Part shown: positions 7,919 to 55,454 of the stretch, piece after piece
Numbering within the stretch: the first letter of the stretch is position 1
Layout: each line of letters starts with the position of its first letter
Origin: Bacteroidia bacterium
GTDB lineage: Bacteria > Bacteroidota > Bacteroidia > J057 > JADKCL01
Direction of reading: 5' to 3'
Assembly: GCA_020635905.1 (NCBI GenBank)
Contig: JACJYV010000004.1
Span: forward strand, 243,142-307,141
Length of the DNA: 64,000 nucleotides
Made by a program: the position numbers and the translations under genes
The notes under the pieces: generated by a model
What the model was told of the DNA's origin: nothing
Seen by the model: the letters and a program-made list of their open reading frames with translations, nothing else
Databases searched by the model: none

Positions 7919-7934
7919 TCACTGATGGAACAAT

Positions 7935-7969
7935 AAAAAAGGCGTCCTCTTGCGGGGACGCCTTTTTTT
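7935..7969. terminator. bidirectional intrinsic terminator
   Basis: A-run, GGCGTCC(TC)/(GG)GGACGCC stem, then T7-run. Lies between the convergent gene ends at 7918 and 7987. Confidence 0.75.
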
Positions 7970-7986
7970 ATGCCTTGATTTTCCGG

Positions 7987-8457: not shown

Positions 8458-8492
8458 AAGCGTTAATTTTGGTTTATGAGGTTTTAAATTAT

Positions 8493-8614
8493 GGGGACCT
8501 CTAAAAACGATGAAGATCAAGGCGGACGCAGGTGAGGAAAGCGGAGTTTACTAAGGTAAATGAGCATTTCCGAACCAAGTCCAACGCAGAGATTCGAAGT
8601 TTTTTGAGGTTCCC
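8493..8614 (+). mobile_element. MITE-like 122-bp element, copy 1
   Basis: Ends are GGGGACCTCTAAAAAC ... GTTTTTTGAGGTTCCC, which are inverted. Flanked by the direct duplication TTAT (8489-8492 and 8615-8618). Homologous to the copies at 27868 and 33034. Confidence 0.7.
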
Positions 8615-8855
8615 TTATGCAAAATTATCAATCCCTGTCTTTCCGAACAAACCATTTCTTTCTGCATTCATATTGGGACCTCCAAATATTTCTGAAAACC
8701 CGATGTTTTAGCCTCCCTTCTCACTGTTTTTCCCCTGACAAAACTTTTTTCAGGAAAAAACAGGGCCTATCCAGTTTAAACCCAGATCGGATTTTTTGGG
8801 GTTGACTATCTGAAGGAAATGTTAGAATTTGCTTCAAAATCAACGTTTTAAAGGC

Positions 8856-14717: not shown

Positions 14718-14963
14718 ATCTTATCGATCAATAGAAAAACCACCTGCCTTCGCAGGATAAACGTCTCAAAACTCCATTTATTTGATCGCAAACGGAAATC
14801 ACTAATTGTGTATAAGTGAAGCGATTGTAGCCAGTGAGAGACAGTTTTGCCAGCATAACGTTTACCCGAGTAACCTTTTGGGATTACAGTTTGGATACTG
14901 CTTAATAACCGTTCATCTTATTTGCCTTGATTGAAATTATGATAAAATCCACCTTATCAGGAA

Positions 14964-14998
14964 GTTCGCAGCTAGAAGCCTGTTGCTCGCAGCTAAAA
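14964..14998. repeat. short heptanucleotide-phased tract
   Basis: Parses as gttcgca gctagaa gcctgtt gctcgca gctaaaa. Same GCTNNNN word family as the tracts at 27008, 33936 and 54772. Confidence 0.5.
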
Positions 14999-15056
14999 AA
15001 AATCCCCCAGCCGAAGCCAGGGAACTGAAATTGAACTTCCTGAAATATTTTTTTAA

Positions 15057-15117
15057 GGGGTAAGTGAGCATTTCTGAAACAAGTTCAACGCTGATATTCA
15101 AAGGTTTAGGGGTTCCC
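15057..15117 (+). mobile_element. MITE-like element, truncated/degenerate copy 4 (right half)
   Basis: ggggtaagtgagcatttctgaaacaagttcaacgctgatattcaaaggtttaggggttccc aligns to the right half of the full copies. No matching left end and no flanking duplication. Confidence 0.55.
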
Positions 15118-17899: not shown

Positions 17900-19345
17900 A
17901 TGTTCGGAATTGAAATCATTGAAGTAGCCCTCGGCCTGGCCCTGGTATATTTTGCCGTGAGCACCATTTGCTCGGGCATTTACGAAGCTTTTGCCCAGCT
18001 GACCGACAAACGCTCCAAGCACCTGGAAGACGGTATTCGCAAGTTTCTTAACGACGAAGCCACTTCCTCCAACCCCAGCGGACTGGCCACTGCACTCTAT
18101 TCAAATCCCGAAATCTGGTCGCGCCTGGAAGGAAAAATCGGCAAAAAAGACTGGATTGAAGCCTCTAAGTTCTCGGGGGTTCTATTCGATATTCTCGTGC
18201 CCAAAGACGAGGCCCAGGAATCAGATTTTGTGAAAAATCTGAAGTCAGAGATCAACAAAACCATGACTGATCCTGGTATTCAGAAAACGCTCAACCGCAT
18301 TGTGGGCGTGTTGGAAACCCCGATTGTGGGCACCCTAAAGGGCATTCTGGAGGATTATTACAAGGATTCGCCTCTCGCGGGCCAAATCATGGAGATTTTT
18401 CAGGGCATTGATCCTGCCACCCAGTGCAAAGACTGTTACGACGAATTGCTGGGCCGACTGCGCGCCCTGAATCTGCCTGATGGAGAGTTTGCTGCCGCAA
18501 AGGAAACCCTGGATGCCCTGGTGCGGGAAGGGGATAAGTTTGCCAATGTGAAAGAATTGATTCGCCTGCGCTTCTCCAATGACAAAATCGAGGAAGCGGC
18601 CCTCAATCTGGTGAGCAAATGGGAGGAAAGCGAAAAAATCATCAAATTCCGTACCCGGCTCGCCGACCGCCTGCGCGACAATAAAATACAAAAGACCCTG
18701 CTGGCCAAGATTGACGCCGCCGAGGGCAAAATCGCTGATGTACGCAAAACCATGGAATCCGTCTTTGATGAGGCCATGGGAGATGTGGGCAAATGGTATC
18801 GTGCCAATGTGCGCATGGTGATCCTGGTCCTCTCGGTGATCATCACTGTGGGTTTCAACGTAGATACCCTCGAACTGGGGCGTGAACTCTGGAACGACAA
18901 CGACCTGCGGGCCGCAACCCTGGTCACGGTGCAGCAGGTGGTGGAGAAAAAATCTGAGGTTTGGTCCCCCAAGCAAGACCCCAATGCAGTGGAAACTGCC
19001 CCTGGGGTGGAAGTAGCAGAGGCCGATACCAGTGGCGGTCAAACTGTTTCCGAACTTCCCGAACCTACTCCCGCGGACACCAGTGGAAAATCCATTGGTG
19101 AAATTCTCCAGGAAGCACAGGTGGCCGTGGATAAAATGGAAACCCTGCCCGTCGGCTGGAATTTTAATGGCAATTTCTGGGACCTCAACTTCAGCAAAGG
19201 TAAAACGGGCAATAAACTCTGGGCTTCCATTCTGCTGAAAATTCTGGGCTTTGTAATGACCATCGCCGCAGCGTCTCTTGGTGCACCCTTCTGGTATAAT
19301 CTGCTCAAAAGCCTCACCAGCCTGAAGGACAAGATAGCCAAGTAA
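17900..19345 (+). CDS. hypothetical membrane protein
   Basis: 481 aa. One N-terminal TM, a long charged helical middle, then two further TM segments (MVILVLSVIITVGF; ILLKILGFVMTIAAASLGAPFWY). No motif I can name. Confidence 0.5.
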   Translation: MFGIEIIEVALGLALVYFAVSTICSGIYEAFAQLTDKRSKHLEDGIRKFLNDEATSSNPSGLATALYSNPEIWSRLEGKIGKKDWIEASKFSGVLFDILVPKDEAQESDFVKNLKSEINKTMTDPGIQKTLNRIVGVLETPIVGTLKGILEDYYKDSPLAGQIMEIFQGIDPATQCKDCYDELLGRLRALNLPDGEFAAAKETLDALVREGDKFANVKELIRLRFSNDKIEEAALNLVSKWEESEKIIKFRTRLADRLRDNKIQKTLLAKIDAAEGKIADVRKTMESVFDEAMGDVGKWYRANVRMVILVLSVIITVGFNVDTLELGRELWNDNDLRAATLVTVQQVVEKKSEVWSPKQDPNAVETAPGVEVAEADTSGGQTVSELPEPTPADTSGKSIGEILQEAQVAVDKMETLPVGWNFNGNFWDLNFSKGKTGNKLWASILLKILGFVMTIAAASLGAPFWYNLLKSLTSLKDKIAK

Positions 19346-19490
19346 TCAATTAACAATTAGCAGAGAGCAATGAACGGAAATCAATTGTCAATTAGCAGAG
19401 AGCAATGAACCTTTGCTTCTTCTCTTACATCTGATATCTAACTGTCTAAAATCTAATTGTCTGACATCTAAAATCTAATTCTCTAAAATC
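19346..19490. repeat. heptanucleotide-phased intergenic tract (R2) with 35-bp higher-order repeat
   Basis: Runs stop-to-stop between convergent genes. tcaatta acaatta gcagaga gcaatga acggaaa is repeated 35 nt later; then come tctaaaa/tctaatt-type units. Confidence 0.8.
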
Positions 19491-20789
19491 TTATTTAAAA
19501 TAATTGATATGAGCAATCCCCACCAACTGGTGGTTGCGGTCGGTGAAGTTTTTGTAATAAACCAGGATAGAATAGACGTTTTCCGTCTCATAATGGGACC
19601 CTTCCAGGCGTGATTCGTCGAGGTGGCCTGTTTTTCCGTCTTTGACTACGTATTGGTAATCGTACACGCCCTGCTTGAGCAGGACGCCCGTTTCGTAGCG
19701 GCGGGTATCTGCATTGAAAACACACTCAAATTCATCCTGAGCCCGCCAATCCGTCATTTTACTGAAGAGATACACCTTGTCATTGCCCATGGATTCGGGA
19801 AAATTGAGGGAAAATTTCACCAGCAGGTAATCAGCTTCGTAGTCGGCATTGGGCCATTCCTGCACCCCCACAAAGTAGCTGCCATTGAAATCGTACTGAC
19901 TCAGGTAGCGATTGGTGAGGCGGGGTTCCTCGGGCCAGAGACGCACGTAAAAGATGGAATCGAGGTCGCGCACGCTTTCCATGCGCTGAGAATGGAAGCG
20001 GGTGCTGCGCAGGTCCACCATGCGGTATTCGTTGCCTCCTTTGAATTCCGTGGCTGCATCAAAAACATACTGTAAACGATCGCCCTGCACAAACTGAGGT
20101 TGCACGTGAGTGGCGGCATTATCCCAACGAAAATTCTGCAGAATCACCACTTCAAGGTCCTGGTAGGGGTTATTGATCTGCATGCCGCTGGTAAAGAGGT
20201 CAAAGGAAACTGTTTGCAGGCGCATGCGCTGCGATACGTCAATGGTCTGACCCACATTGGGTTTGATCCCCACCTTATTATCTGCCACGATCATCCTGCG
20301 GCTGAAGGTGATATCTTCCTCGTCGCCCGCACGGTACACATACAACAGGTAATTTCCACTTTGGGTGAAGGCGATTCGCTCGGGATCCAGGATGTATTCG
20401 TAGTGAAAATAAGGCACTTTGGTGTTCTGTGATCGCTGCCAGTTGTAGATGCGGTCGTAGGTGACCCCGTCCAGAAATTCAATGGGAAGCACGTTTACGG
20501 GCTCCCAGTTGGCATCGGCAGGCAGAAAACCCACGTAGAAATCCTCGGGATCCTGGTCCCAGGGCACCAGTTCGTCGAATTCGAGGATGAGACGACCGGG
20601 CGAGCGCAGGGGAATGATGGGATAGCCCATTTCATTGCCTTCCACATAAAACTGAATGGTACGAATAGCCGGGTCGTACACCATGTCGCGGTATTCCAGG
20701 GTCGCATTTTGGGCGAAATTGAAGCCGGGGAGGAGGGAGGCGATCAGGAGAACGCTCCAAAGGGGAAGGATTTTGAATAAATTTTGCAT
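19491..20789 (-). CDS. secreted protein, DUF5103-like (T9SS-associated family; family name tentative)
   Basis: Track ORF trimmed to ATG 20789 (MQNLFKILPLWSVLLIASLLPGFNFAQ). Beta-rich, with C-terminal GVYDYQYVV and a YKNF..R tail resembling that family. Confidence 0.55.
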   Translation of the reverse strand: MQNLFKILPLWSVLLIASLLPGFNFAQNATLEYRDMVYDPAIRTIQFYVEGNEMGYPIIPLRSPGRLILEFDELVPWDQDPEDFYVGFLPADANWEPVNVLPIEFLDGVTYDRIYNWQRSQNTKVPYFHYEYILDPERIAFTQSGNYLLYVYRAGDEEDITFSRRMIVADNKVGIKPNVGQTIDVSQRMRLQTVSFDLFTSGMQINNPYQDLEVVILQNFRWDNAATHVQPQFVQGDRLQYVFDAATEFKGGNEYRMVDLRSTRFHSQRMESVRDLDSIFYVRLWPEEPRLTNRYLSQYDFNGSYFVGVQEWPNADYEADYLLVKFSLNFPESMGNDKVYLFSKMTDWRAQDEFECVFNADTRRYETGVLLKQGVYDYQYVVKDGKTGHLDESRLEGSHYETENVYSILVYYKNFTDRNHQLVGIAHINYFK

Positions 20790-20869
20790 GCCTGGGGGCC
20801 AATTTCCATGGATTAAACCAGGAAAACAAGGCAAATATTGTACCTGAATTTGAATTGCAACCTGGAAAA

Positions 20870-22786
20870 TCAGTTTTCGAGTTCTTCGAGCTCTTCGGCC
20901 AGTTTTTCCCATTCAGGATTGAGGGCTTCCAGGCGGAGGTCGATGGCATCCACTTCTTTCTGGATATTGGCCAGCCCTTCAAAATCACGCGCCATGTCGG
21001 GACTGCTCATTTTTTCCATCAGGGCTTCCTTTTTCTCCTCCAGTTCCATGATTTCCGCTTCCACCTTCTCAAACTGATTGCGCACCCGCTTCTCCTTTTT
21101 CCGCTTTTCCTTGTCTGCCCAGTAGTCGTGTTTTTCCTTGGGTTCCTCCGCCGTTTTCACGGATTGTACGGGCGCAGCGGCAGGAATTCCGGACTTCAGT
21201 TTGCGGTGATATTCAAATTCCTCGTAGGTGCCGGGGTATTCTTTGAGAATATGATTTTCAATGTACCAAATCTTATTGGCCACTTTGCCCAGGAAATAAC
21301 GGTCGTGAGATACCACCACATAGGTGCCTTCATAGCCATTGAGCGCCTGAATCAGGATTTCAATGCTGCCAATGTCGAGGTGGTTGGTGGGCTCGTCAAG
21401 CAGGAGAAAATTGGCTTCCAGCATGAGGGTTTTGGCCAAAGCAACCCGGCTTTTTTCCCCACCTGAAAGCACACTAATCTTTTTCTCCACATCGTCACCT
21501 GAAAAGAGAAATCCCCCCAGAATATTCCGCACATAGGTTTCGCCTTTTTTCATCACAAAACCGCGCATTTCCTGCAGGATGGTGTCGGTCTGGGTGAGGG
21601 ATTCGAGTTGGTGCTGGGCAAAAAAGGAGGGCTGCACGTTGGTCCCATAGGAGACCTGTCCGTCAAAAGGCTCAATCTCCCCGATCATGCGCAACAGCGT
21701 GGATTTTCCCATTCCGTTGGCTCCAATAAAAGCGATTTTGTCGCCCCGCACAATGGAGGCTTTGCAGGGGGTGAAAATGAGTTTATCCCCGTAACGTTTT
21801 CCCTTGATATCTATTTCCAGAATCTGCTTCCCGGGCTGAACAGAAGGCGAGAATTTGATTCTCACATCACTTCCCTCGGACTCTGGCGCACCAATTCGTT
21901 CCACTTTATCCAGCAGTTTGATCTTGCTTTGCACCTGACGGGCCTTGGTGGCTTTGGCGCGGAAACGATTGATAAATCGCTCCGTGTCCTTGATCATTTT
22001 TTGCTGGTTGTCGTACTCGCGTTTCAGTTGTTCTTCGCGAATCTCCTTCTCCTCGAGGTAAAAAGTATAGTTACCCTTATAAAAATGGAAGCGCTGATGC
22101 GCCACTTCAAGCGTACTTGTAACCAGACGATCCAGGATAAAACGGTCGTGGGAAATGATCACGTAGGCGCCTTTGAAGGAAGCCAGATACCCTTCCAGCC
22201 ACTCAATGGAGGGCAGGTCGAGGTGGTTGGTGGGCTCATCGAGCAGGAGCACATCGGGTTGGGTGAGGAGCAGTTTGGCCAGCATCACCCGCATGCGCCA
22301 ACCTCCTGAAAGGTTGTGATAAGGCGCTTTTTGCACTTCTTCGGGAAAACCCAGTCCGCCCAGAATCTCGTGCACACTGGTTTCCATGTTGTAGCCGCCC
22401 ATGGCCTCAAAAAGATGCTGCTTGTCTGAAAGGCGGCTGATCAGCTGCGGATCGGGATTTCCTTCCAAATCAACCAGCAATTGGTCAATTTCCTCCTTCA
22501 GTTTGAGCGCGGGGGCAAAGGCCTCCATGGCTACTTCGATCACAGAATCGCCTGATTCAAAGGAAAGTAACTCCTGGTGCAGATAGCCAATGCGGCAATC
22601 TTTGGCCATACTCACCTTGCCCGCGGTGGGGGTGAGGTCGCCTACAATCAGTTTGAGCAGGGTAGTTTTTCCTGTCCCATTACGGCCAATCAGTCCTACG
22701 CGGTCGCCGGGCTTGATCTGCCAGGTCGAATCCTTGTACAGGAAGCGACCGCTGAACTCAAACGATATGTTATCTAAGGTAATCAG
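20870..22786 (-). CDS. ABC-F family ATPase (Uup/YbiT-like, two ABC domains plus C-terminal coiled coil)
   Basis: Two Walker A / LSGG signature / Walker B sets and a charged C-terminal coiled coil. The first Walker A (GRNGTGKTT, 22661-22687) lies upstream of the first ATG/GTG/TTG (22615). The start is therefore set at in-frame CTG 22786 (or ATT 22783), giving an (M)ITLDNISF N-terminus. Confidence 0.8.
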   Translation of the reverse strand: MITLDNISFEFSGRFLYKDSTWQIKPGDRVGLIGRNGTGKTTLLKLIVGDLTPTAGKVSMAKDCRIGYLHQELLSFESGDSVIEVAMEAFAPALKLKEEIDQLLVDLEGNPDPQLISRLSDKQHLFEAMGGYNMETSVHEILGGLGFPEEVQKAPYHNLSGGWRMRVMLAKLLLTQPDVLLLDEPTNHLDLPSIEWLEGYLASFKGAYVIISHDRFILDRLVTSTLEVAHQRFHFYKGNYTFYLEEKEIREEQLKREYDNQQKMIKDTERFINRFRAKATKARQVQSKIKLLDKVERIGAPESEGSDVRIKFSPSVQPGKQILEIDIKGKRYGDKLIFTPCKASIVRGDKIAFIGANGMGKSTLLRMIGEIEPFDGQVSYGTNVQPSFFAQHQLESLTQTDTILQEMRGFVMKKGETYVRNILGGFLFSGDDVEKKISVLSGGEKSRVALAKTLMLEANFLLLDEPTNHLDIGSIEILIQALNGYEGTYVVVSHDRYFLGKVANKIWYIENHILKEYPGTYEEFEYHRKLKSGIPAAAPVQSVKTAEEPKEKHDYWADKEKRKKEKRVRNQFEKVEAEIMELEEKKEALMEKMSSPDMARDFEGLANIQKEVDAIDLRLEALNPEWEKLAEELEELEN

Positions 22787-22795
22787 TGGATTTGC

Positions 22796-25924: not shown

Positions 25925-25997
25925 GCTTCGGGCTGCCCCAGGCTTCAAGCCAATTGAGGAACTTACAACTCACAACTTACAACTAATCCCCAACCAA
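25925..25997. repeat. heptanucleotide-phased intergenic tract (R3)
   Basis: Runs stop-to-stop. Parses as gcttcgg gctgccc caggctt caagcca attgagg aacttac aactcac aacttac aactaat. Confidence 0.75.
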
Positions 25998-26864
25998 CTA
26001 TTCCAAATCTAAACTCCTCAACCATTCCCGCAAGGCAGGACCTGTGCCTTCCTTTTTCAGGCCGAAGTGAACGTTGGCTTTGATGAAATCAAGGGTGTTG
26101 CCCACGTCGTGCCGTCGGCCTTCGAAACGAAGGCCGTACATGGCCCGGTCACGGAGCATGGCCCGCATGGCGTCGGCCAGTTGGATTTCCTGGTGAAGAC
26201 CAGGTTGGGTTTGGTCCAGATAATCAAAGATTTCTGCAGTAAAAATATAGCGCCCGGCAATCGCCAGGCGCGATGGGGCTACCTCCTGACTGGGTTTTTC
26301 AACCCAGTCTTCCGCCAGCCAGAGATTTTCAGAAATCTCTTTTCCTTTCAATATTCCATAACGACTGACCATTTCCATAGGAACTTCCTCCAGGGCAATT
26401 ACCGGGTCCTGGTAACGGTCAAAAACCTTCATCAGTTGGGCGGTGACAGGGGTGGAATCTGATTCAACAATTGAATCACCCAGGAGTACAGCAAAAGCCT
26501 CATTGCCAACATGATAACGGGCGTAACGTATAGCATCACCCAAGCCGTTCAGCTCCTTTTGCCAGACAAAATGAATGTCTGCCAGATTGGAAATCCTGCG
26601 GATTCTTTTCAGCAATTTTTCCTTGCCCTGTTCGGCCAGTTGTTGCTCCAGTTCCCAGTTGCGGTCAAAATGTTCCTCAATGGCGCGCTTGCCCTTGCCA
26701 ATGATCATCAGAATGTCCGTAATGCCCGAAGCCACTGCCTCCTCCACCACATATTCGATCACAGGCGTATCCACCACTGGCAACATTTCCTTGGGCTGCG
26801 ACTTCGTCGCAGGCAGCATCCGCGTTCCAAATCCCGCAGCAGGTATGACGGCTTTTTTGATCAA
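25998..26864 (-). CDS. galU: UTP--glucose-1-phosphate uridylyltransferase (GalU-type sugar-1-phosphate nucleotidyltransferase)
   Basis: 288 aa. The N-terminus KAVIPAAGFGTRMLPATKSQPKEMLPVVD is the classical GalU signature. TTG start at 26864. Confidence 0.88.
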   Translation of the reverse strand: MIKKAVIPAAGFGTRMLPATKSQPKEMLPVVDTPVIEYVVEEAVASGITDILMIIGKGKRAIEEHFDRNWELEQQLAEQGKEKLLKRIRRISNLADIHFVWQKELNGLGDAIRYARYHVGNEAFAVLLGDSIVESDSTPVTAQLMKVFDRYQDPVIALEEVPMEMVSRYGILKGKEISENLWLAEDWVEKPSQEVAPSRLAIAGRYIFTAEIFDYLDQTQPGLHQEIQLADAMRAMLRDRAMYGLRFEGRRHDVGNTLDFIKANVHFGLKKEGTGPALREWLRSLDLE

Positions 26865-27037
26865 GTTCAGATTTTAGATTTTAGATGGATAGATTTTAGA
26901 GGTTAGTCTTGAGTCCTTAGTCCTTAGAGGTAAGATAAAAGACAGTTCAAGTTTCGCCACTCGCCACTCGCCACTCGCCACTTGAAACTCTGAACTTACA
27001 ACCACCCGCTCGCAGCTCGAAGCCAGCAGCTTGAAGC
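26865..27037. repeat. heptanucleotide-phased intergenic tract (R4)
   Basis: 23 consecutive units between the galU start and the MIOX stop. 11 end in AG, 7 in AC (including TCGCCAC x4) and 5 in GC. Only 3 units are not exactly 7 nt. Confidence 0.85.
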
Positions 27038-27850
27038 CTAAAAATAAACGGGGGCTTTGCCGAGATATTTCTCAATGATGGGCTGATAATACTCCATCAG
27101 TTGGTCGAGGTTGTAGGTGACGGGAGCTTTGGTGTACAGATCAAACAGGTTGAATTCGCGCACCCACTCTTTGTACTGCTCGTCGCGGTCATCATCGAGG
27201 AGGGAATAGGCTCCGTGGCTGTGCCAGGGGTAAAATGAGTGGTAACGGACCATGATCATGCCCGCTTCAGGGATGCGGTTTTCTGGATGGTGGCTCAGCA
27301 CCTGAAACAGATATTCGTCGTGTCCCCAGGCTTTGAGGCAATTGTCAATGCCGCAATTGGCTTCGTACATGCCCAGGGGGGTAAAATAATCCGGGTTTTC
27401 CATGTCGGGATTCAACTCATTGAATTCGGGAAAAACCACGCCCTGCGGCAGCTGACATCCCACCAGAAAAATATCGCCCACCAGGCCCCATTGCTCTTTG
27501 AGCGAGGTGCCGTCCTCGTCGCAACCCCACAGGTACATGACCTTGCCCAGGTCATGGATGAGGGCCACCAACTGAAACCAATCGGGTTTTCCGGCACGTC
27601 TGGCGCCTTCTGCGGCCTGCAAAAGGTGCTGTACATTGGGCAGGTCCATGTCGGGATCGCTGAGATCCACGAAGTCATTCAGGCCCTCCAGGGCCTGACG
27701 GATGGTCATGGGATGGTCGAAGGTCAGGTATTTGGCCTGCATCCTTCTGACGTAGGCAACCGTCTGATTTTGGCGCATTTTGCGGTAATTTTCGCGCACA
27801 GCGGGCAGCAAATGCCCGGTTTCGTAATTGCGGAATTGGGTCTTTTCCAT
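27038..27850 (-). CDS. myo-inositol oxygenase
   Basis: About 270 aa with MIOX/HD-type di-iron motifs: LIHDLGKV, AWGHDEY, RYHSFYPWH, and C-terminal DLYTK. Trimmed to ATG 27850; the longer ORF reads into the MITE. Confidence 0.85.
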   Translation of the reverse strand: MEKTQFRNYETGHLLPAVRENYRKMRQNQTVAYVRRMQAKYLTFDHPMTIRQALEGLNDFVDLSDPDMDLPNVQHLLQAAEGARRAGKPDWFQLVALIHDLGKVMYLWGCDEDGTSLKEQWGLVGDIFLVGCQLPQGVVFPEFNELNPDMENPDYFTPLGMYEANCGIDNCLKAWGHDEYLFQVLSHHPENRIPEAGMIMVRYHSFYPWHSHGAYSLLDDDRDEQYKEWVREFNLFDLYTKAPVTYNLDQLMEYYQPIIEKYLGKAPVYF

Positions 27851-27867
27851 GGGGTGAAGATAATAAA

Positions 27868-27989
27868 GGGAACCTCTAAAAACAAAGAAGATCAAGGCGG
27901 ACGCAGGTGAAGAAAGCGGAGTTTACTACCGTAAATGAGCATTTCTGAGCCAAGTCCAACGCAGAGATTCGAAGTTTGTAGAGGTTCCC
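27868..27989 (+). mobile_element. MITE-like 122-bp element, copy 2
   Basis: GGGAACCTCTAAAAAC ... GTTTGTAGAGGTTCCC, with 15 of 16 TIR positions matching. Flanked by the direct duplication TAAA (27864-27867 and 27990-27993). Confidence 0.72.
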
Positions 27990-28093
27990 TAAATTTTGCG
28001 GCCTTCCCCAAGGCGTGCTTTCTCATTTGAATAAATGTGAATATGCTTTAGCTTTGCCTCAACGATGCACGCAAAAAACACATACCCAGCCGT

Positions 28094-32990: not shown

Positions 32991-33033
32991 CAACCAGACT
33001 TTTTAAAGGTCTGAATTTTTGCCGTTAAATAAA

Positions 33034-33154
33034 GGGGACCTCTAAAAACAAAGAAGGTCAGGGCGGACGCAGTTCCAGAAAGCGAAGTTTACCGGGGTAA
33101 ATGAGCATTTCTGAAACAAATCCAACCCAGAGATTCAAAGATTTTGGAGTTCCC
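33034..33154 (+). mobile_element. MITE-like 121-bp element, copy 3
   Basis: Homologous along its length to copies 1 and 2. Flanked by the direct duplication TAAA (33030-33033 and 33155-33158). Ends 19 nt before ATG 33174. Confidence 0.7.
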
Positions 33155-33173
33155 TAAAGAAAATAAGCTAAAA

Positions 33174-33935
33174 ATGGTTACAAAACCTGCCCATACATCG
33201 CATGTCAACCCGAACGTTTCCGTGGACTGCGTCATATTTGGATTTGATTCTGAGGATTTGAAAGTGTTGCTGATTGAGCGGGGATCGCCAGAAAACGGGG
33301 ATCAAAATTCAACTGCTGGTAAATATGTTTTACCCGGCGACCTGATTCGCAACGACGAAAATCTGGACCAGGCTGCAGAGCGGGTTCTCAACGAATTGAC
33401 GGGCCTGAAACGCATTTTTCTGGATCAGTTTCATGCCTTTGGAGACCCTGAAAGGGTGCGTCGGCCCGAGGATCAGCAGTGGCTTTCCACTGTGCGGGCA
33501 GAGCCCGACGCCCGGGTAATCACCGTGGCTTACTATTCTTTGGTTAAAATTGATGATTATCAGCCCCAGCCTTCTTCTTTTGCCCGCAAGGCAGAATGGG
33601 TACTGGTCAATGAGATTCCTCAGTTGGGATTTGACCATAATGAAATTCTCAACCGCGGAATTTACGCTCTGCGTTCCAAACTGCGGACTCAGCCTGTGGG
33701 TTTTGAGTTGTTGCCTCTCAAGTTTACCCTGGGGCAATTGCAGAATTTGTATGAAAAGATTCTGGGCAATGAACTGGATAAGCGGAATTTCCGTCGTAAA
33801 ATGCTGAAACTGGGGGTTTTGATTCCCCTGGAAGAGCGTCAGCAGGGAGTGCCCCACAAGCCTGCCCAGTATTTTGAATTCGACAAGGAGAAATACGAAC
33901 AGGTGTCGAAGGAGGATTTAAGCTTCGTTTTTTAA
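33174..33935 (+). CDS. NrtR-family regulator (degenerate Nudix domain plus C-terminal winged HTH)
   Basis: The Nudix box is degenerate (GDLIRNDENLDQAAERVLNELTG). C-terminal FTLGQLQNLYEKILGNELDKRNFRRKM is the NrtR-type wHTH signature. Start trimmed out of the MITE. Confidence 0.8.
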   Translation: MVTKPAHTSHVNPNVSVDCVIFGFDSEDLKVLLIERGSPENGDQNSTAGKYVLPGDLIRNDENLDQAAERVLNELTGLKRIFLDQFHAFGDPERVRRPEDQQWLSTVRAEPDARVITVAYYSLVKIDDYQPQPSSFARKAEWVLVNEIPQLGFDHNEILNRGIYALRSKLRTQPVGFELLPLKFTLGQLQNLYEKILGNELDKRNFRRKMLKLGVLIPLEERQQGVPHKPAQYFEFDKEKYEQVSKEDLSFVF

Positions 33936-34021
33936 GTTGCGAGCCTTTAGCTGCGAGCTGCAAGCAAAATTCTCGCCACTCGAAACTCGCCACTCGAACC
34001 TCACTACTCGAACCTCGCTAC
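33936..34021. repeat. heptanucleotide-phased intergenic tract (R5)
   Basis: 12 units in perfect phase with no indel, running stop-to-stop: gttgcga gccttta gctgcga gctgcaa gcaaaat tctcgcc actcgaa actcgcc actcgaa cctcact actcgaa cctcgct. Confidence 0.85.
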
Positions 34022-35389
34022 TCAAGAAAATACTTCTTTAAAGACTTCCTCCAGTCTTGAAAATCCTTTGATTTTAATGTTTTTGAATTTGCCTTCCAGG
34101 CCTTTGAGTTGGCGGGAGGAAAGGTAAATTTCCTTGAAACCCAGCTTTTCAGCTTCGCTGATACGCTGTTCAATGCGTTGCACGGCTCTCAATTCGCCGG
34201 CCAGGCCCACTTCAGCGGCAAAAACCCGCGTTTTGTCAATTGGCAGGTCGTGGGCCGAACTGATCACTGCGAGAATCAGCCCCAGGTCCAGGGCTGGGTC
34301 ATCGACCCGAATGCCGCCCGCCATGTTGATAAACACGTCTTTGGTGCCCATTTTGAAGCCGCAGCGCTTTTCCAGCACGGCCAGCAGCATATTCAGTCTG
34401 CGCAGATCAAAGCCAGTGGCAGACCGTTGGGCAACCCCATAGGCCATGGGCGTGACCAGGGCCTGGGTTTCGATCAAAAGGGGCCGCAGGCCCTCCATAG
34501 TGGCGCTGATGGCCACCCCACTGAATTCCTCGTCGCCCGTGGAAAGGAAGATTTCTGAAGGATTATTCACTTCCCGCAAACCGCCGCTGTGCATTTCATA
34601 AATACCCAGCTCGAGGGTGGAGCCAAAGCGGTTTTTTACCGTGCGCACCACCCGAAAATTGTGGTGGCGATCGCCTTCAAAAGTCAGAACGGCATCCACC
34701 GTGTGTTCCAGCACCTTGGGACCAGCCAGGTGACCTTCCTTGGTGATGTGTCCTACCAGAAAGACGGGCACCTGGCTTTGCTTGGCCAGCCGCATGAAGC
34801 GGGAAGCGCATTCGCGGACCTGGGAAACGCTGCCCGGGGCTGAGTCAAGTTCCTCGGTATAAACGGTTTGGATGGAATCAATGATCAGTAGTTCGGGCTT
34901 GAGTTCGTGGAAAGAATGGATGATTTTCTCCATGCTGGTTTCGGCCACGATGTACAGGTCGGGATTGACGGAAGCAATGCGGTCGGCCCGCATTTTGATC
35001 TGTCGCTCAGATTCCTCGCCAGATACGTACAGGGTTTTCAACCCGTTGAGCTGAAGGGCCACCTGAAGCAGGAGGGTTGATTTTCCTATTCCTGGTTCGC
35101 CGCCCAGCAGAATGATCGATCCCAACACAATTCCCCCGCCCAGCACACGGTTCATCTCAGCATCAGGCACCAGAATCCGTTTCTCCTCAATGGAATCGAT
35201 TTCCACTAATGGTCTCGGCTTGCTGGCTGGCGTGACGGGCATGGCAGACTGGCTGGCTGTTGCCGCACGTTTGTCCACGATTTCTTCCGTCAGGGTATTC
35301 CATTCACCACAAACCGAACACTGACCCTGCCATTTTCCATGATTGGCCCCACAACTGCTGCAGATGAATACGGTTTTTAATTTTGACAT
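34022..35389 (-). CDS. radA: DNA repair protein RadA/Sms
   Basis: N-terminal C4 zinc finger (CSSCG...CSVCGEW), Walker A GEPGIGKST, KNRFG motif and a Lon-like C-terminal domain. Confidence 0.95.
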   Translation of the reverse strand: MSKLKTVFICSSCGANHGKWQGQCSVCGEWNTLTEEIVDKRAATASQSAMPVTPASKPRPLVEIDSIEEKRILVPDAEMNRVLGGGIVLGSIILLGGEPGIGKSTLLLQVALQLNGLKTLYVSGEESERQIKMRADRIASVNPDLYIVAETSMEKIIHSFHELKPELLIIDSIQTVYTEELDSAPGSVSQVRECASRFMRLAKQSQVPVFLVGHITKEGHLAGPKVLEHTVDAVLTFEGDRHHNFRVVRTVKNRFGSTLELGIYEMHSGGLREVNNPSEIFLSTGDEEFSGVAISATMEGLRPLLIETQALVTPMAYGVAQRSATGFDLRRLNMLLAVLEKRCGFKMGTKDVFINMAGGIRVDDPALDLGLILAVISSAHDLPIDKTRVFAAEVGLAGELRAVQRIEQRISEAEKLGFKEIYLSSRQLKGLEGKFKNIKIKGFSRLEEVFKEVFS

Positions 35390-35509
35390 AACGTTTTACG
35401 GTTTACGGTTTACGGTTTACGGTTTACGGTTCTATGTTGTAAGTTCCCACAAGGTGGTGCCTTTGGCATGAGTTGTAAGTTGATAGGTAATTTCTCTAAT
35501 CTCTAATCT
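35390..35509. repeat. heptanucleotide-phased intergenic tract (R6)
   Basis: TACGGTT x5 (35397-35431), then gtaagtt / tgtaagt units, then tctaatc tctaatc. Runs from the radA start codon to the upstream gene's stop. Confidence 0.85.
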
Positions 35510-36250
35510 CTAAATCCCAAAACTCCGGCTGCGGGACAAAAATTCCTGAATTACGGGTTCATTTGCGCTGAACAGTTCTTCGGCAGTGCCCCAAAAATGA
35601 AGTTTTTTCTCGTGAATGAGAGCCACTTTGGTGGCGATTTTTCGTACGGTGGCCAGGTCATGGGTGATCACCACGGAGGTGCGGTCTTTTTCCAGGCTGA
35701 GTTGCTGGATCAGGTTGTCGATCACTTCTGAATTGACCGGGTCAAGACCCGTGGTGGGTTCGTCGTAGAAAATATAGGGAGGTTTGAGAATCACGGCCCG
35801 TGCAATGCCCACCCGTTTGCGCATCCCGCCTGAAAGTTCGGCGGGAAATTTATGCAGGATACTTTCATTCAACCCCACCTGTTCCAGCGATTCAATTACT
35901 TTTTCCCGAATCAGTTCCCTGGGCAATTTCCTTTCCTCAAATAATTTGATCCCCACATTCTGCAACACATTCAGCGAATCAAATAAGGCAGCACCCTGAA
36001 AAACCACCCCAAATTTGGTCAGAACAGGAGAAAGCTGGCTTTCCCGCAACCGCGAAATTTCGACTTCGTCCACATAAATTTTTCCAGTTTCAGGCTGAAG
36101 CAAGCCAGTGATCAGTTTCATCAAAACTGATTTCCCTGATCCACTTTTGCCAATGATGCACAACTTTTCTCCCTTCGCAATTGAAAACCCAATCTCCTGC
36201 AGCACCTCCAGGTCGGCAAAAGATTTGGATACATTTTCAAGAACGATCAT
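35510..36250 (-). CDS. ABC transporter ATP-binding protein (MlaF-like)
   Basis: 246 aa. Walker A GKSGSGKS, signature LSGGMRKR, Walker B IFYDEPT. Confidence 0.85.
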   Translation of the reverse strand: MIVLENVSKSFADLEVLQEIGFSIAKGEKLCIIGKSGSGKSVLMKLITGLLQPETGKIYVDEVEISRLRESQLSPVLTKFGVVFQGAALFDSLNVLQNVGIKLFEERKLPRELIREKVIESLEQVGLNESILHKFPAELSGGMRKRVGIARAVILKPPYIFYDEPTTGLDPVNSEVIDNLIQQLSLEKDRTSVVITHDLATVRKIATKVALIHEKKLHFWGTAEELFSANEPVIQEFLSRSRSFGI

Positions 36251-38497: not shown

Positions 38498-38508
38498 TGT
38501 TGGTGCTA

Positions 38509-38735
38509 TTCAACACAAAGACACGAAGTTCGCAAAGTTTTTTTGGGGGAAAGCTTCAGATTGTGGGTATTAAATGGAGCGGTTTTTTTAACACAGAGAA
38601 CCACAGAGCCCAGTTTAGTGGTCAGAAGATTTTTTATTTGAAGCTTCCGCTTTTTGGTGGTTTTTAACACAAAGACACAAATAGTTCACAGAGATTGTTT
38701 TGATTGAAAAACTTCGTTTTTGAGTTTACAGAGAC
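38509..38735. repeat. dispersed short repeats in a convergent intergenic region
   Basis: AACACAAAGACAC occurs at 38512 and 38666 (154 nt apart), with the variant AACACAGAGAACC at 38590. CACAGAG occurs at 38602 and 38687; AAGCTTC at 38551 and 38641. T-runs lie in between. Confidence 0.5.
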
Positions 38736-38765
38736 TGGTTTTATAAGATTCAGGGGAATTCTCCT

Positions 38766-39842: not shown

Positions 39843-39931
39843 TTTTTCAGATAGGAGATTTTCAGAGGCTAGTCCTTAGTCGTTAGTCCTTAGTCGTTAG
39901 TCGTTGGGGATGGCTCGTCGCTCGCAACTCG
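39843..39931. repeat. heptanucleotide-phased intergenic tract (R7)
   Basis: Parses as agtcctt agtcgtt agtcctt agtcgtt agtcgtt ggggatg gctcgtc gctcgca. Runs from the aroC start codon to the MlaD-like stop. Confidence 0.8.
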
Positions 39932-40906
39932 TTACTCCTCCTCATACAATTTCTGTTTGCCGCTGAGGGTCATGGAAACGTGGATACGTTTGGTTCGCAG
40001 ATGCTCCAGGGTTTTGTTCAGGTTTTTGACGGTTTCGTCCAGATCACTGGCAAATTTTTCGTCATAAAGCACTTTTCCCATGAGGGTATTTTTGTCCTTG
40101 CTTTGCGCCAGCAACTCTTCCACAGAAACCATCAGTCCTTCTGTTTGTTTGAGCATTTCAGCCAGACTTCCCATCAGGCTATCTGCTTTGGGTAGGGAAT
40201 TTTCCTTTACCCCCTGACTGATCGATCGCACGTCCTCCATGGTCAGTTTGGCTTCGTCGGCCAGGTCGTTCATTTTCACCAATGCGCTGTCCACCTTGGT
40301 AACCAGCCTTTTTTGTTCCACCTGACCCAGAATGCGATTGAGTTTGTCAGCTGCGCCTGAAAGGTCAGAAACCGTGCCGGCCAGTTCGCCCGTATTGATT
40401 TCGCGGCTCAGTTCGCCCACCGCGCGGGTTACGTCCTTCACACTTTGAAAAAGGCTGTCCATGGCGCCTGGCGAAATTCCCTGCATCATGCCGCCAAACT
40501 GAGAAAAAGCTGTGCTGAAATCCATGGCCGTATTTCCCCTGATACGGGCGCCAGGATTGAGCTTATTGCCCTGATTTCCAGGATATAGTTCAATCATTTT
40601 ACCCCCAGTCAGTTCTTTGATGCGGATTTCTGCGCTGGCATTTTCAAACAGACTTACCTCTTCATTGAGGGCAATTTCCACCAACGCGCCATCCTGTGCC
40701 AGGGAAATGGACTTCACTTTGCCAGATGGGAGCCCGAAAACATTGATTTTATCATTGGTTTTGAGGCCGGCCACATTGTCGAACAGAATGGTATAGGTCT
40801 GGGCTGATTCCGCAAAAAAATGGATGCCCTTTCCCCAGGCAATGAACAGATAGAGGGCGAGGATACCGCCAAGGACGGTCATACCTATTTTTGTTTCCCG
40901 TTTCAA
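39932..40906 (-). CDS. MlaD/MCE-family protein
   Basis: 324 aa. N-terminal KRETKIGMTVLGGILAL anchor, MCE beta-barrel region (GLKTNDKINVFGLPSGKV) and a long helical C-terminus. TTG start 1 nt after the upstream stop. Confidence 0.75.
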   Translation of the reverse strand: MKRETKIGMTVLGGILALYLFIAWGKGIHFFAESAQTYTILFDNVAGLKTNDKINVFGLPSGKVKSISLAQDGALVEIALNEEVSLFENASAEIRIKELTGGKMIELYPGNQGNKLNPGARIRGNTAMDFSTAFSQFGGMMQGISPGAMDSLFQSVKDVTRAVGELSREINTGELAGTVSDLSGAADKLNRILGQVEQKRLVTKVDSALVKMNDLADEAKLTMEDVRSISQGVKENSLPKADSLMGSLAEMLKQTEGLMVSVEELLAQSKDKNTLMGKVLYDEKFASDLDETVKNLNKTLEHLRTKRIHVSMTLSGKQKLYEEE

Positions 40907-43587: not shown

Positions 43588-44175
43588 TTGCGGCCCATGC
43601 TGGACGCCATTTACAATTTTGATATCCGTCTGTATCTGTGGCTCAGAGGGGCTTTGTTTTCGCCGTTTATGGAGTCGTTTGCAAAGATTTTGGGCAATCC
43701 TTACGGCTGGATGCCCGTTTTTGCCATGGTGGCGGCTCTGTTGTATGTGCACCGTCCGCAGAAACTGGGACGTGACCTTTTCTTTGGTCTGGTTGCCTTT
43801 GTGCTCAGCTACCAGGTGAGCCAGGTGCTGGGTTATTTTGTGCAAAGAAAATCACCCGCTTCCCTCGAGAGTATCATTCGGGCGGCAGACGGGGAGGAGA
43901 TCCTCCTGCAACTGGACGATTTCAGTTTTCCTGATTGGGCCGTGGCCGCCATGGCAGGAGTTTTGATTTTTGTGCGCCTGCGCATGGAAGAGAAAAGACG
44001 CTTTCTGGTGCTTTTGGCTGGGTTTTCACTGGGCTTGCTTATTCTTTGCCGGGTTTACTCGGGTCAGTGTTTTCCGCTGGACGCCGTAGGCGGCCTGCTG
44101 GTGGGGATGCTGATGGGCATCCTTTCTGCCCGGGTTGCCGCAGGCATGGACCGCTTTTCCGTGAAGGTAAGCTGA
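43588..44175 (+). CDS. PAP2-fold membrane protein with substituted catalytic residues
   Basis: Six-TM layout. PAP2-like blocks are RKSP (C1), FPDW (canonical PSGH) and CRVYSGQCFPLD (canonical SRxxxxxHxxxD). TTG start; ATG 43597 is an alternative. Confidence 0.5.
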   Translation: MRPMLDAIYNFDIRLYLWLRGALFSPFMESFAKILGNPYGWMPVFAMVAALLYVHRPQKLGRDLFFGLVAFVLSYQVSQVLGYFVQRKSPASLESIIRAADGEEILLQLDDFSFPDWAVAAMAGVLIFVRLRMEEKRRFLVLLAGFSLGLLILCRVYSGQCFPLDAVGGLLVGMLMGILSARVAAGMDRFSVKVS

Positions 44176-44252
44176 AGGTAGCGGTCAGCTTTTAGCAGTC
44201 AGCGGTCAGCGGTCAGCAATCAGCAATCAGCAATCAGCAGTCAGCGTTCAGG
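44176..44252. repeat. heptanucleotide-phased tract (R8)
   Basis: 11 in-phase units starting at the base after the stop: aggtagc ggtcagc ttttagc agtcagc ggtcagc ggtcagc aatcagc aatcagc aatcagc agtcagc gttcagg. Confidence 0.85.
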
Positions 44253-45560: not shown

Positions 45561-45577
45561 TAATAATCAACAGAAAT

Positions 45578-45610
45578 AAAAAACCCGGCAGTGATCCTGC
45601 CGGGTTTTTC
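45578..45610. terminator. bidirectional intrinsic terminator
   Basis: A6, CCCGGCAG tgatc CTGCCGGG, T5. Lies between the convergent ends at 45560 and 45638. Confidence 0.8.
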
Positions 45611-45637
45611 TTTGCGTAGATTTTTCAATCTCCGGGT

Positions 45638-47286: not shown

Positions 47287-47334
47287 TTTAGTTTAGTTAG
47301 TTTAGTTGGTTTGTTAGTTTAGTTAGTTGGTTGG
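47287..47334. repeat. low-complexity TTTAG/TTAG/TTGG tract
   Basis: tttagtttagttagtttagttggtttgttagtttagttagttggttgg. Less regular than the heptad tracts. Confidence 0.6.
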
Positions 47335-48181: not shown

Positions 48182-48564
48182 TAAAAAAAAAGCCCCTGGT
48201 TAAGGATTCCCGGGGCATGTCTGAAAGTGATTTGGTGAAAAAAAGGAAGGTACTACTATGAAAAAGGCGTGTTTGTAAACTGAAAAAAAGTGGTTCGAAA
48301 TAACTTCTAAAGTGGAGGTTCGGGTTCAATTTGGGTAAAATTTTTCTTCATACCCTTGCTTTTGGCCTGAACGGTCAGTTTTGGGGTGACAATGGAAATA
48401 ATCATTTCATGAAAGGAAATATTACTCAACAGAAATCGTTAGCAATGTCACAACCACGCTTGAATTTCCCCGTTTAAGATTTTCCCGCATTATTTTCCCG
48501 CATTAAATTTCGCGCAATTTGTTTTCTGACTCCTGAAAACTGCTTTCCTTCATTGAATTATTCA

Positions 48565-54771: not shown

Positions 54772-54947
54772 CTGCAAGCTACGAGCTGGGGGCTGCCTGC
54801 TTCGGGCATCTGGCTGGAAGCTATTATCGGCCAGCGGTCAGTTGGCAAAGTAAAGCAAATGGGTTTTGCTAATCCATTCAATACTAAGGACTCAGGACTC
54901 CCGACTAAGGACTATTCTCTAAAATCTGACATCTAAAAATCTAACAT
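54772..54947. repeat. heptanucleotide-phased intergenic tract (R9)
   Basis: Exactly 25 units (24 x 7 nt plus one 8-nt unit = 176 nt) fill the gap from the stop at 54771 to the convergent stop at 54948. 16 units start with CT. Confidence 0.9.
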
Positions 54948-55454
54948 CTAAATCTTTACAAATCCCGACCTCAGATACTGATTTCCTTTGGAAATGAGGA
55001 TGCGATAATCGCCTTCGCGCAGGGATTCCACGTCGAGCAGGAGCAGGTTTTTGCCTTCGCGGGCGCTGTAAACCTCAGAGTGGCGGACGCGGTTGCGCTT
55101 ATTGATGATGTTGACGTGCAGGGGCGCACGCATTTTGGATTCAAAGGTGATGGTGACCAGGTAAGCCTGCTTGCCGGGATTCTGGGAAACATTGACCAAC
55201 AGGTCACTAAACAGGTCTGAGTTGGTGCGCACCCGCTTCAACTGACGGGAATTCAGGTGGCTTACGGGGTTGGAAACAGCCTCAGTGGGCTGATATTTAG
55301 GGGTTTGCAGCAGGCAGGGATGGTTGGCTTCTCCTTCGCAGGCATAGGGTGATTGGGCAAAAAGGCCGAAACCCATGCTGATAAAAATCGCACCAAACAG
55401 AAAAATACGAAGATTTGCCCCAAAAGCGGGCCAGAAAGGGGTCGAAGGAATCAT
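54948..55454 (-). CDS. small secreted protein, possible T9SS C-terminal sorting domain
   Basis: 168 aa with a hydrophobic N-terminus. The C-terminal beta-rich segment (LHVNIINKRNRV...LLLLDVESLREGDYRILISKGNQYLRSGFVKI) resembles Por secretion tails. Confidence 0.45.
   Translation of the reverse strand: MIPSTPFWPAFGANLRIFLFGAIFISMGFGLFAQSPYACEGEANHPCLLQTPKYQPTEAVSNPVSHLNSRQLKRVRTNSDLFSDLLVNVSQNPGKQAYLVTITFESKMRAPLHVNIINKRNRVRHSEVYSAREGKNLLLLDVESLREGDYRILISKGNQYLRSGFVKI

Follow-up and report, generated by a model that had tools for sequence, protein, structure and literature searches.

Why do the same few seven-nucleotide words recur in intergenic gaps that lie tens of kilobases apart? The question is raised by a 120-nt gap at positions 35390-35509 of a 64,000-nt stretch of DNA from an uncultured Bacteroidia bacterium (GenBank assembly GCA_020635905.1, contig JACJYV010000004.1, positions 243,142 to 307,141; hereafter the window). 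The gap is the entire space between a minus-strand lptB-like gene (35510-36250) and radA (34022-35389), and a heptad register covers nearly everything in it. Read in the sense of the genes, it begins with the stop codon TAG followed by AGATTAG AGATTAG AGAAATT ACCTATC AACTTAC AACTCAT and continues, after a 22-nt non-repeat segment, with AACTTAC AACATAG, five copies of AACCGTA, AAACGTT and the ATG. To our knowledge, 35 years of heptanucleotide repeats have brought neither an established generator nor an established function. An initial annotation, made from the sequence alone, had listed words of this kind at distant loci in both orientations, and all of the heptad strings it quoted were found at their coordinates. 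We show here that the tracts belong to the described intergenic heptanucleotide class, known as short tandemly repeated repetitive (STRR) sequences or long simple sequence repeats (long SSRs), expanded in one Bacteroidia lineage, and that they are not a new type of element.

Results

Period-7 arrays are enriched in the gaps of the window

Tandem Repeats Finder (TRF) returned period-7, -14 or -21 arrays at every quoted locus, with about 15 rows of period 7 in total and further rows of periods 14 and 21, and the window holds about 20 period-7 tracts. In intergenic DNA, base identity was 0.31, 0.31 and 0.29 at lags of 7, 14 and 21 nt, as against about 0.26 at adjacent lags; the coding DNA of the window showed no peak at lag 7 (0.24). 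All of the arrays with at least three units lay in gaps between open reading frames (ORFs), and none lay within an ORF. When a strict array was defined as at least three copies with at least 80% match, the window contained seven arrays of period 7 and two of period 14. The resulting period-7 density of 1.09 per 10 kb is 24 times that found elsewhere (0.045 per 10 kb), the comparison set being 1.54 Mb around radA from 83 other Bacteroidota loci. Fifty dinucleotide-preserving shuffles yielded no strict array, and no other non-triplet period was enriched in the window.

Short-read contigs of the same organism (L081, L241 and L242, from the Logan runs SRR12358676 and SRR12358675) matched the window with zero mismatches across the arrays and showed no difference in copy number, and two of the three terminated inside perfect arrays. 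Because these independent contigs reproduce the arrays base for base, the arrays are real and are not assembly artefacts.

Words and block junctions are shared between distant loci

The claim that distant loci have heptad words in common was borne out within the 64-kb window. Among the ten heptad-bearing gaps, 14 of the 45 pairs had a word of at least 10 nt in common on either strand, about 10 times the 1.4 ± 1.1 pairs expected under a null that permutes the seven heptad columns within each gap and thereby preserves composition and tandem structure; none of 1000 such permutations reached 14 sharing pairs, and the excess held up to 13-mers. When all intergenic segments were considered, a 12-mer was common to 18 region pairs, compared with 4.9 ± 2.2 in shuffles.

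Sharing extends to the junctions between blocks of different words. Three segments, at 26869-26927 (+), 39843-39905 (+) and 54883-54952 (−), are collinear over about 60 nt, in an alignment that spans the passage from AGATTTT through AGAG(GT/GC/AA)T to AGTCCTT and in which the order of the blocks is also conserved. The first copy of this composite module starts 4 nt from the start codon of a nucleoside triphosphate (NTP)-transferase gene and consists of 4.4 units of AGATTTT, AGAGGTT and 3.6 units of AGTCTTG/AGTCCTT. The second runs from the start codon of aroC (39842, −) and reads AGATAGG AGATTTTC, AGAGGCT and 2.4 copies of AGTCCTT AGTCGTT. The third is inverted and reads, on the minus strand, AGATTTAG (the final codons and stop of orf168), AGATTTTT AGATGTC AGATTTT, AGAGAAT and AGTCCTT AGTCGGG AGTCCTG AGTCCTT. 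All three were delimited by TRF and alignment. In addition, TCTGACATCTAAAATCTAA, which contains a derived variant unit, is common to 19457-19476 and 54922-54941 in the same context, and a two-unit alternation of TCGCCAC and TCGAAAC is common to 26954-26990 and 33972-34009. Three whole gaps, read from 27037 to 26865 (−), from 39931 to 39843 (−) and from 54772 to 54947 (+), have the same order of blocks (GCGAGC-type, variable middle, CTAAGGA, CTAAAAT), and a GCT-type block adjoins the stop codon of five different genes.

Since junctions and derived units are shared between loci, we infer common descent, that is, copying, and the pattern argues for copying between loci acting on top of local slippage. 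The initial annotation had reasoned that independent local slippage would fail to explain the same words tens of kilobases apart, and this core inference holds. It had offered a common generator or selection for binding words as the cause; the two could not be told apart, yet direct support, in the form of shared junctions and variant units, was obtained for copying and not for binding-word selection. The AGTC, TCAGC and AGAT cores do stay constant while other columns vary, a pattern that is statistically not compelling given the post-hoc choice of columns. The proposed group of GCTCGCA/GCTGCGA/GCTCGAA-type units proved loose: its words are present, but the unit is nearly its own reverse complement and the member at 14964-14998 is doubtful. 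A scan of public metagenomes for the junction of the composite module returned one four-unit match, after the stop codon of a folD-like gene (L243), which is probably the number expected by chance.

Array structure suggests local slippage

Several arrays have higher-order periods. TRF found a perfect 14-nt period at 39870-39902 (TAGTCCTTAGTCGT, 2.4 copies, 100% match), a period of 14 at 33972-34023 (CTCGCCACTCGAAC, 3.7 copies) and periods of 14 and 21 at 44180-44251. The number of units in the AGTC block differs among its paralogous copies (3.6, 5.1 and 4.6). The gap at 26865-27037 can be read in one continuous register as GCTTCAA, GCTGCTG, GCTTCGA, GCTGCGA, GCGGGTG, GTTGTAA, GTTCAGA, GTTTCAA and four copies of GTGGCGA, a graded series of the kind that a mutating and re-amplifying satellite would look like.

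The arrays were gained at ORF boundaries

The nearest relatives have at most 72% protein identity to the window, the next-best RadA after the identical record being 72% identical. In three relatives (L084, L085 and L086; RadA 71-72% identical), lptB and radA overlap by 8 nt where the window has its 120-nt heptad gap. Likewise, among relatives whose AroC is 68-71% identical, mlaD and aroC overlap by 4 nt in two (L244/L245 and L246/L247) and have 16 nt between them in a third (L248), and in the window they are separated by 89 nt of heptads. Relatives at 68-72% protein identity had essentially no period-7 arrays. As the junctions of the relatives overlap and are free of repeats, the arrays are insertions gained in the lineage of the window, also within operons; the gain took place at ORF boundaries after the split from the nearest sampled relatives. 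Inspection by eye of the sense strand of the lptB/radA and mlaD/aroC inserts revealed no match to TAnnTTTG, the Bacteroidetes-type promoter consensus, and the genes downstream of the inserts are probably still co-transcribed with those upstream.

Arrays have a fixed polarity and no secondary structure

The distance to an ORF end is 0-50 nt for most arrays; several arrays take in the stop codon. None of 10 divergent gaps had an array, as opposed to 9 of the 22 in which a gene 3′ end is located (Fisher p = 0.03). On the strand that reads outward from the nearest ORF end, G exceeded C in 19 of 21 arrays (p = 2e-4), and this strand was G+T-rich in 18 of 22. Both orientations of the words are thus seen, as had been noted, but the orientation is not free: it is set by the adjoining ORF boundary, so that the words of a family are on the plus strand where they border a gap on its left, and on the minus strand where they border it on its right. 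It follows that the sense RNA after a stop codon carries the G-rich form, and the leader before a start codon the A/C-rich, G-poor form. Background skew was rejected as the source of this polarity, because array-free gaps beside stop codons had G>C in 7 cases and G<C in 6. A different regularity, that nearly all words of the window can be written as AGNNNNN, was dropped in favour of the G>C polarity, because 66 unrelated heptad words from IMG/VR showed no enrichment of AG/CT (52 observed, 48.6 expected).

When the RNAs of nine heptad gaps were folded on both strands, none surpassed its shuffles (z from −1.5 to +1.8), whereas canonical terminators at 7919-7986 and 45561-45637 of the same window reached z values of −4.3 to −4.9. 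The arrays are unstructured single arms and not hairpins, and their interpretation as a hairpin-forming STRR pair or an intrinsic terminator was rejected because they fold no better than shuffled sequence. A known RNA was likewise rejected, since Rfam matches only the tRNA in the window. No two complementary arms occur within one gap; with about 8 families in 7 gaps such an absence is expected about 40% of the time, and we therefore do not claim that complementary arms are avoided.

The individual tracts

In the lptB/radA gap, 5.9 copies of ACGGTTT at 35391-35431 (+; TRF, 97% match) end 2 nt short of the start codon of radA (35389, −), so that the radA leader reads (AACCGUA)5. The next stretch, 35432-35492 (+), consists of two copies of GTTGTAAGTT (35436-35445 and 35472-35481) around a 26-nt segment, and then degenerate GATAGGT AATTTCT. 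Three copies of AGATTAG at 35493-35513 (−; TRF, 100% match) take in the TAG stop of lptB. The 26-nt segment (35446-35471, CCCACAAGGTGGTGCCTTTGGCATGA) is single-copy in the window and lies inside the heptad tract with a perfect 10-nt direct repeat, GTTGTAAGTT, on each side; it resembles a small insertion with a duplicated target. It recalls the small dispersed repeats reported from within cyanobacterial heptamer arrays, although assignment to such a repeat was rejected for want of a second copy in the window.

Near the left end of the window, three NNTCAGC units at 5150-5171 (+) begin 7 nt past the stop of an LPG-synthase-like gene (3832-5142, +), and 3.4 copies of TTTACGG at 5224-5247 (−; 100% match) occupy the 3′ flank of a deoxynucleoside kinase gene (5257-5874, −), forming the exact complement of the radA leader array. 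An AGATTTT-type array with 7- and 8-nt units at 19436-19491 (−) adjoins the stop of a type IX secretion system (T9SS)-plug gene (19491-20912, −), and four units of AGTTGTA/AGTTGTG at 25960-25987 (−) lie 10 nt past the stop of the NTP-transferase gene (25998-26864, −). These four arrays were called by TRF, as were 4.1 copies of AGTGGCG at 26954-27004 (−; 100% match), which grade to AGTTTCA, AGTTCAG and GTTGTAAGTT. The block GCTTCAA GCTGCTG GCTTCGA GCTGCGA at 27008-27037 (−) adjoins the stop of the MIOX gene (27038-27895, −).

Downstream of radA, the 86-nt gap that separates it from an NrtR-like gene (33144-33935, +) amounts to 12 in-phase heptads on the minus strand. The block GTTGCGA GCCTTTA GCTGCGA GCTGCAA at 33936-33965 (+) adjoins the NrtR-like stop, and GTAGCGA GGTTCGA GTAGTGA GGTTCGA GTGGCGA GTTTCGA GTGGCGA runs from the radA stop at 33972-34023 (−), where TRF called the 3.7-copy array of period 14. 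Further to the right, CGAGTTG CGAGCGA CGAGCC at 39913-39931 (−) adjoins the stop of the mlaD-like gene (39932-40906, −); ten AGCNNTC units at 44180-44251 (+), the TRF array with higher-order periods of 14 and 21 nt, begin 4 nt past the stop of a PAP2 gene (43588-44175, +); and at 54772-54841 (+) a GCT-type block, CTGCAAGCTACGAGCTGG..., adjoins the stop of a gene for a 2072-aa alpha-2-macroglobulin-like protein and is followed by a short hairpin region and by CGGCCAGCGGTCAG. The genes beside the arrays are ordinary housekeeping genes and have no common function.

The doubtful member at 14964-14998, to which no strand was assigned, consists of GCTCGCAGCT-type words in a divergent gap. These words are contained in a strong stem-loop at 14950-15063 (minimum free energy −43.9 kcal/mol; z = −4.6 on the minus strand), which has CAGGAAGTTC/GAACTTCCTG as its closing sequences and immediately precedes the ORF at 15064. 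The GCT-type words at this site may belong to a different element.

Heptad arrays in other lineages

Window words and scrambles with the same composition were searched for in IMG/VR as three-unit arrays. The window words (TCGCCAC)3, (TAGTCST)3 and (AACCGTA)3 were found at 53, 14 and 1 loci, and the scrambles at 11, 1, 53 and 21 (the last being a scramble of TAGTCST). The possibility that the words of the window are favoured across lineages was rejected, since they are no commoner than scrambles; the contigs L097, with GTCCTTA and TCGCCAC arrays, and L098, with GTCCTTA and TCGCAGC arrays, were treated as anecdotes.

Heptad arrays as such are common in many unrelated IMG/VR contigs (GC 0.32-0.73). 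Adjacent related arrays in these contigs were inverted in 45 cases and direct in 8, and usually formed long perfect hairpins. In the environmental contigs L087, L103, L108, L129, L131, L134 and L094 (GC 0.43-0.70), inverted pairs of heptad arrays fold into long, almost perfect hairpins, in many cases right behind a stop codon, as in TGA (GTGGCGA)4, loop, (TCGCCAC)4, and the 5′ arm is consistently G-rich. L087 alone has 14 hairpin-type heptad arrays in 6 kb.

Relation to known repeats

The cyanobacterial STRR units include CCCCAGT, TTGGTCA and CAACAGT; a literature search by these unit sequences returned only unrelated papers. The tracts of the window have head-to-tail 7-nt units, an intergenic bias, dispersed families that recur within 64 kb, polarity relative to ORF ends and a lineage-specific occurrence, which are among the characters by which STRR and long-SSR arrays are recognized. 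What is distinctive here is the host lineage, the many word families without G-tracts, the composite blocks that recur between loci and the lack of hairpin pairing.

The closest parallel is with the heptamers GGGAATC of Xanthomonas and GGGGA(C/T)T of Nostoc/Anabaena, which are about 90% intergenic, lie 0-50 nt from an ORF, read as the coding strand after stop codons and as the non-coding strand before start codons, are rare between divergent genes, are transcribed, and occur as single arrays or inverted pairs with no function identified (Rehm et al. 2015, PMC4692102). The window arrays resemble these in having a 7-nt unit with one or two variable positions, short arrays (about 3-6 units), proximity to ORF ends, with some arrays over the stop codon, strand polarity, depletion from divergent gaps and functionally mixed neighbours. 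They differ in that no word is dominant, at least eight families coexist, blocks are composite, arms are mostly single and the host is an uncultured member of the Bacteroidia. As the words are mostly not G-tracts, formation of G-quadruplexes is not expected here.

Cyanobacterial STRR heptamers are dispersed families of tandem 7-bp units located between genes and within operons and described as hairpin-forming; effects on transcript stability and translational coupling have been proposed for them but not proven (PMC2670836). Like these (Mazel et al. 1990, via PMC2670836), the window has several dispersed, lineage-specific families in non-coding DNA; unlike STRR arrays, which often form hairpins (for example between hupS and hupL), its arrays do not, and the words and the phylum are different. 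Direct repeats of TAACTGA have been reported from marine Beggiatoaceae, some Cyanobacteria and five Bacteroidetes, and "larger assemblages of heptamer repeats" from Gramella, Aequorivita and Elizabethkingia, where the corresponding gaps of close relatives are shorter and repeat-free (MacGregor 2015, PMC4679880). TAACTGA arrays are likewise intergenic, with 2-6 units a few nucleotides from start codons, and a reversed set just after a stop codon in Flexibacter litoralis fits the polarity rule found here (PMC4679880). The window, however, has no TAACTGA array; in the Beggiatoaceae genome one word is dominant, mainly upstream of start codons, whereas in the window the words are many and the majority of the arrays adjoin stop codons. 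According to Mrazek et al. (2007), as cited in PMC4692102 and PMC4679880, the heptanucleotide is the commonest long SSR unit, and the contact length of the polymerase was proposed to favour 7-nt slippage.

Other classes fit less well. Repetitive extragenic palindromes and their composites (REP, bacterial interspersed mosaic elements [BIME] and REPIN) are also short, dispersed, intergenic, often at gene 3′ ends and present in both orientations, but they are imperfect hairpin palindromes mobilized by REP-associated tyrosine transposases (RAYTs), whereas the units here are tandem heptads; this assignment was rejected because there is no palindrome and no RAYT or Y1 transposase within the window, which contains no transposase at all. 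Miniature inverted-repeat transposable elements were rejected as a class because there are no inverted termini and the arms of a gap use different words, the only candidate duplication being GTTGTAAGTT around 35446-35471. Contingency SSRs of phase-variable genes also consist of short tandem units prone to slippage, but their usual unit is 1-5 nt long, and surface or restriction genes carry them within the ORF or the promoter spacer; the window arrays lie outside ORFs, mainly 3′ of housekeeping genes, so that a change in copy number would shift no reading frame, and this class too was rejected. A clustered regularly interspaced short palindromic repeat (CRISPR) array was rejected because the units are 7 nt long and contiguous, as opposed to 25-40-nt repeats with unique spacers.

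Other repeats and features of the window

A dispersed repeat of about 129 nt, 81-91% identical between copies, occurs at 8487-8615, 27862-27990 and 33028-33156, with a partial copy at 15057-15117 (all +); the four copies lie in divergent gaps, each upstream of a plus-strand gene. Its motif, ..aaaggggacctctaaaaac..ggcggacgcag..gaaagcg.agtttac..ggtaa, is followed by an ATG that opens a short conserved ORF, MSISE(P/T)(S/N)PTQRF(E/K), of 15, 31 and 18 aa in three copies, and the version at 15064 is fused to a 250-aa ORF. The repeat has no Rfam match even at E<=1; it may specify a leader peptide or be a regulatory element that acts from upstream.

The convergent gap that holds the AGATTTT-type array also contains, at 19344-19410, a 35-nt unit (AATCAATTAACAATTAGCAGAGAGCAATGAACGGA) in 1.9 tandem copies (93% match) directly past the stop of a 481-aa gene. 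At 47288-47332, in the gap upstream of a MazG-like gene, (TTAG/TTTAG)n forms an array of mixed period 4, 5 and 9, which is not a heptad array and yet carries the TTAG/TAG motif of many heptad words. The 268-nt convergent gap at 38498-38765 has no heptads, but contains several T-runs and two copies of TTGGTG.T.TT.AACACAAAGACAC.AA, 154 nt apart and 86% identical, a repeat of another type. At 48479-48516, some 40 nt upstream of the alpha-2-macroglobulin-like gene, ATTTTCCCGCATT is repeated in tandem 2-2.7 times and could be an operator-like direct repeat. Finally, the ORF of an ABC-F ATPase (20870-22615, −) begins after a stop codon, and the sequence immediately upstream (22616-22795) codes for its N-terminal Walker A region (GRNGTGKTTLLK). 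A stop or frameshift seems to interrupt the gene, which could be a pseudogene or reflect a sequence error.

Discussion

From the class of the arrays, their enrichment, their gain at ORF junctions, their polarity and their lack of structure, we arrive at a reading to which we give a probability of roughly 0.55: STRR/long-SSR arrays gained in this lineage are shaped by slippage, block copying and a filter of selection, and act as unstructured spacers for which no dedicated function is needed. Replication slippage would lengthen and shorten each array locally, 7, 14 or 21 nt at a time, and point mutation would let its units drift into graded series such as GCTTCGA > GCTGCGA > GTTGTAA > GTTTCAA > GTGGCGA. 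Composite blocks of several units would be copied between gaps by ectopic recombination or template switching, giving rise to the shared vocabulary. Purifying selection would then retain the harmless copies, beside stop codons or in operon junctions; the sense RNA that follows a stop would carry the G-rich strand, and a leader that precedes a start the G-poor, A/C-rich one. Copies in divergent promoter gaps would be lost. The retained arrays would serve as unstructured spacers inside transcripts, and on this account they would be neutral.

Four points weigh against this reading. Copying needs a mechanism, and we found in the window neither homology in the flanks nor a target-site duplication nor a gene of a mobile element. 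Slippage is deduced from array structure, because the Logan contigs are identical to the window and the data comprise 64 kb of one genome. For the polarity at stop codons, harmlessness offers no obvious rationale. Lastly, the strict polarity together with the constant AGTC, TCAGC and AGAT cores could reflect a reader protein.

The last point leads to the strongest of the alternatives, which we regard as possible but considerably less probable. The arrays may be selected platforms for a protein of the cold-shock-domain or S1-type OB-fold kind that binds single-stranded nucleic acid over about 7 nt, one molecule coating each heptad on the mRNA; it might keep intercistronic and untranslated RNA unfolded or tune translation or termination, and the vocabulary would then be the set of acceptable words. 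The strict polarity relative to ORF ends, the location 0-10 nt from start or stop codons and the lack of structure are all consistent with such a role, as are constant cores with variable columns at the same places across loci (AGTC+3, NN+TCAGC, AGA(T)+3-4), even though that last pattern is not significant once the post-hoc column choice is counted. There are also precedents: readers of the S1, Csp or CsrA type were proposed by MacGregor for TAACTGA, and Bacillus CspB, as noted in the same paper, binds one heptamer per protein (PMC4679880). However, at least eight dissimilar word families would demand a very degenerate reader or several readers, the window has no candidate reader gene, the flanking genes have no common function, and there is no conserved regulon, as relatives at 68-72% protein identity lack the arrays.

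It is less likely that the arrays are diverged copies of a small non-autonomous mobile cassette of about 90-175 nt, which would insert at ORF boundaries in a fixed polarity and in which a GCGAGC-type block and a variable middle would be followed by blocks of CTAAGGA and then of CTAAAAT. The agreement of three whole gaps in block order and orientation, the GCT-type block at the stop codons of five genes, the insertions exactly at former gene overlaps and the 10-nt direct repeat flanking the 26-nt segment at 35446-35471 all point in this direction. Such a cassette would nevertheless have no terminal inverted repeats, no hairpin, no consistent target-site duplication and no transposase or RAYT-type gene in the window; the similarity between its copies is only 73-85%, their block content varies, and the metagenome scan for the junction gave the one short, probably fortuitous, match.

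Slightly more doubtful still is the idea that hairpin-type heptad elements have degenerated into the present arrays, the arms having diverged or been replaced so that only their polarity is left. Elsewhere, inverted array pairs form long stem-loops that may act as terminators or stabilizers: hairpins are described for STRR sequences in cyanobacteria (PMC2670836), and 45 of the 53 adjacent related arrays in heptad-rich IMG/VR contigs are inverted. The polarity of the window is matched there, G exceeding C in the 5′ arm of all 14 IMG/VR classes with non-zero skew, and in L094 arms of AGTCCTT/AGTCGTT pair with arms of AACGACT/AAGGACT. Within the window, the arms of the gap at 33936-34021 use the related inverted words GCTGCGA and GTGGCGA (5 of 7 bases). 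Most gaps, though, have unrelated words in their two arms, none folds better than shuffled sequence, and no hairpin ancestor is visible, since the relatives lack any element at the two comparable junctions.

Finally, we consider it very improbable that the vocabulary is an addressing code, in which fragments of 3′ untranslated regions would base-pair in trans with leaders belonging to unrelated genes and obstruct the initiation of translation. The polarity rule does put G-rich forms of a word family into 3′ untranslated regions and the complementary forms into leaders, immediately ahead of the start of a different gene. In the window, (UUUACGG)3 in the 3′ flank of the deoxynucleoside kinase gene is complementary to (AACCGUA)5 in the radA leader, and the orf168 3′ flank to the NTP-transferase and aroC leaders over about 60 nt; the predicted duplexes reach −45 to −65 kcal/mol as against −17 ± 4 for shuffled partners. 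Complementarity is, however, automatic when one word family occurs in both orientations. If true, the addressing code would give these long-enigmatic repeats a regulatory function.

For genome annotation, we suggest that such tracts merit recognition as a repeat class; they also break short-read assemblies. The lptB/radA and mlaD/aroC junctions are two clean natural insertions, which show that arrays can invade operon junctions and swap translational coupling for an unstructured spacer, and the shared block junctions suggest that copying between loci, besides slippage, shapes the vocabulary. The placement rules known from Xanthomonas and Nostoc extend to a distant phylum with different words. 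Because the rules hold with words that are not G-tracts, this argues against an explanation specific to G-quadruplexes and for something more general.

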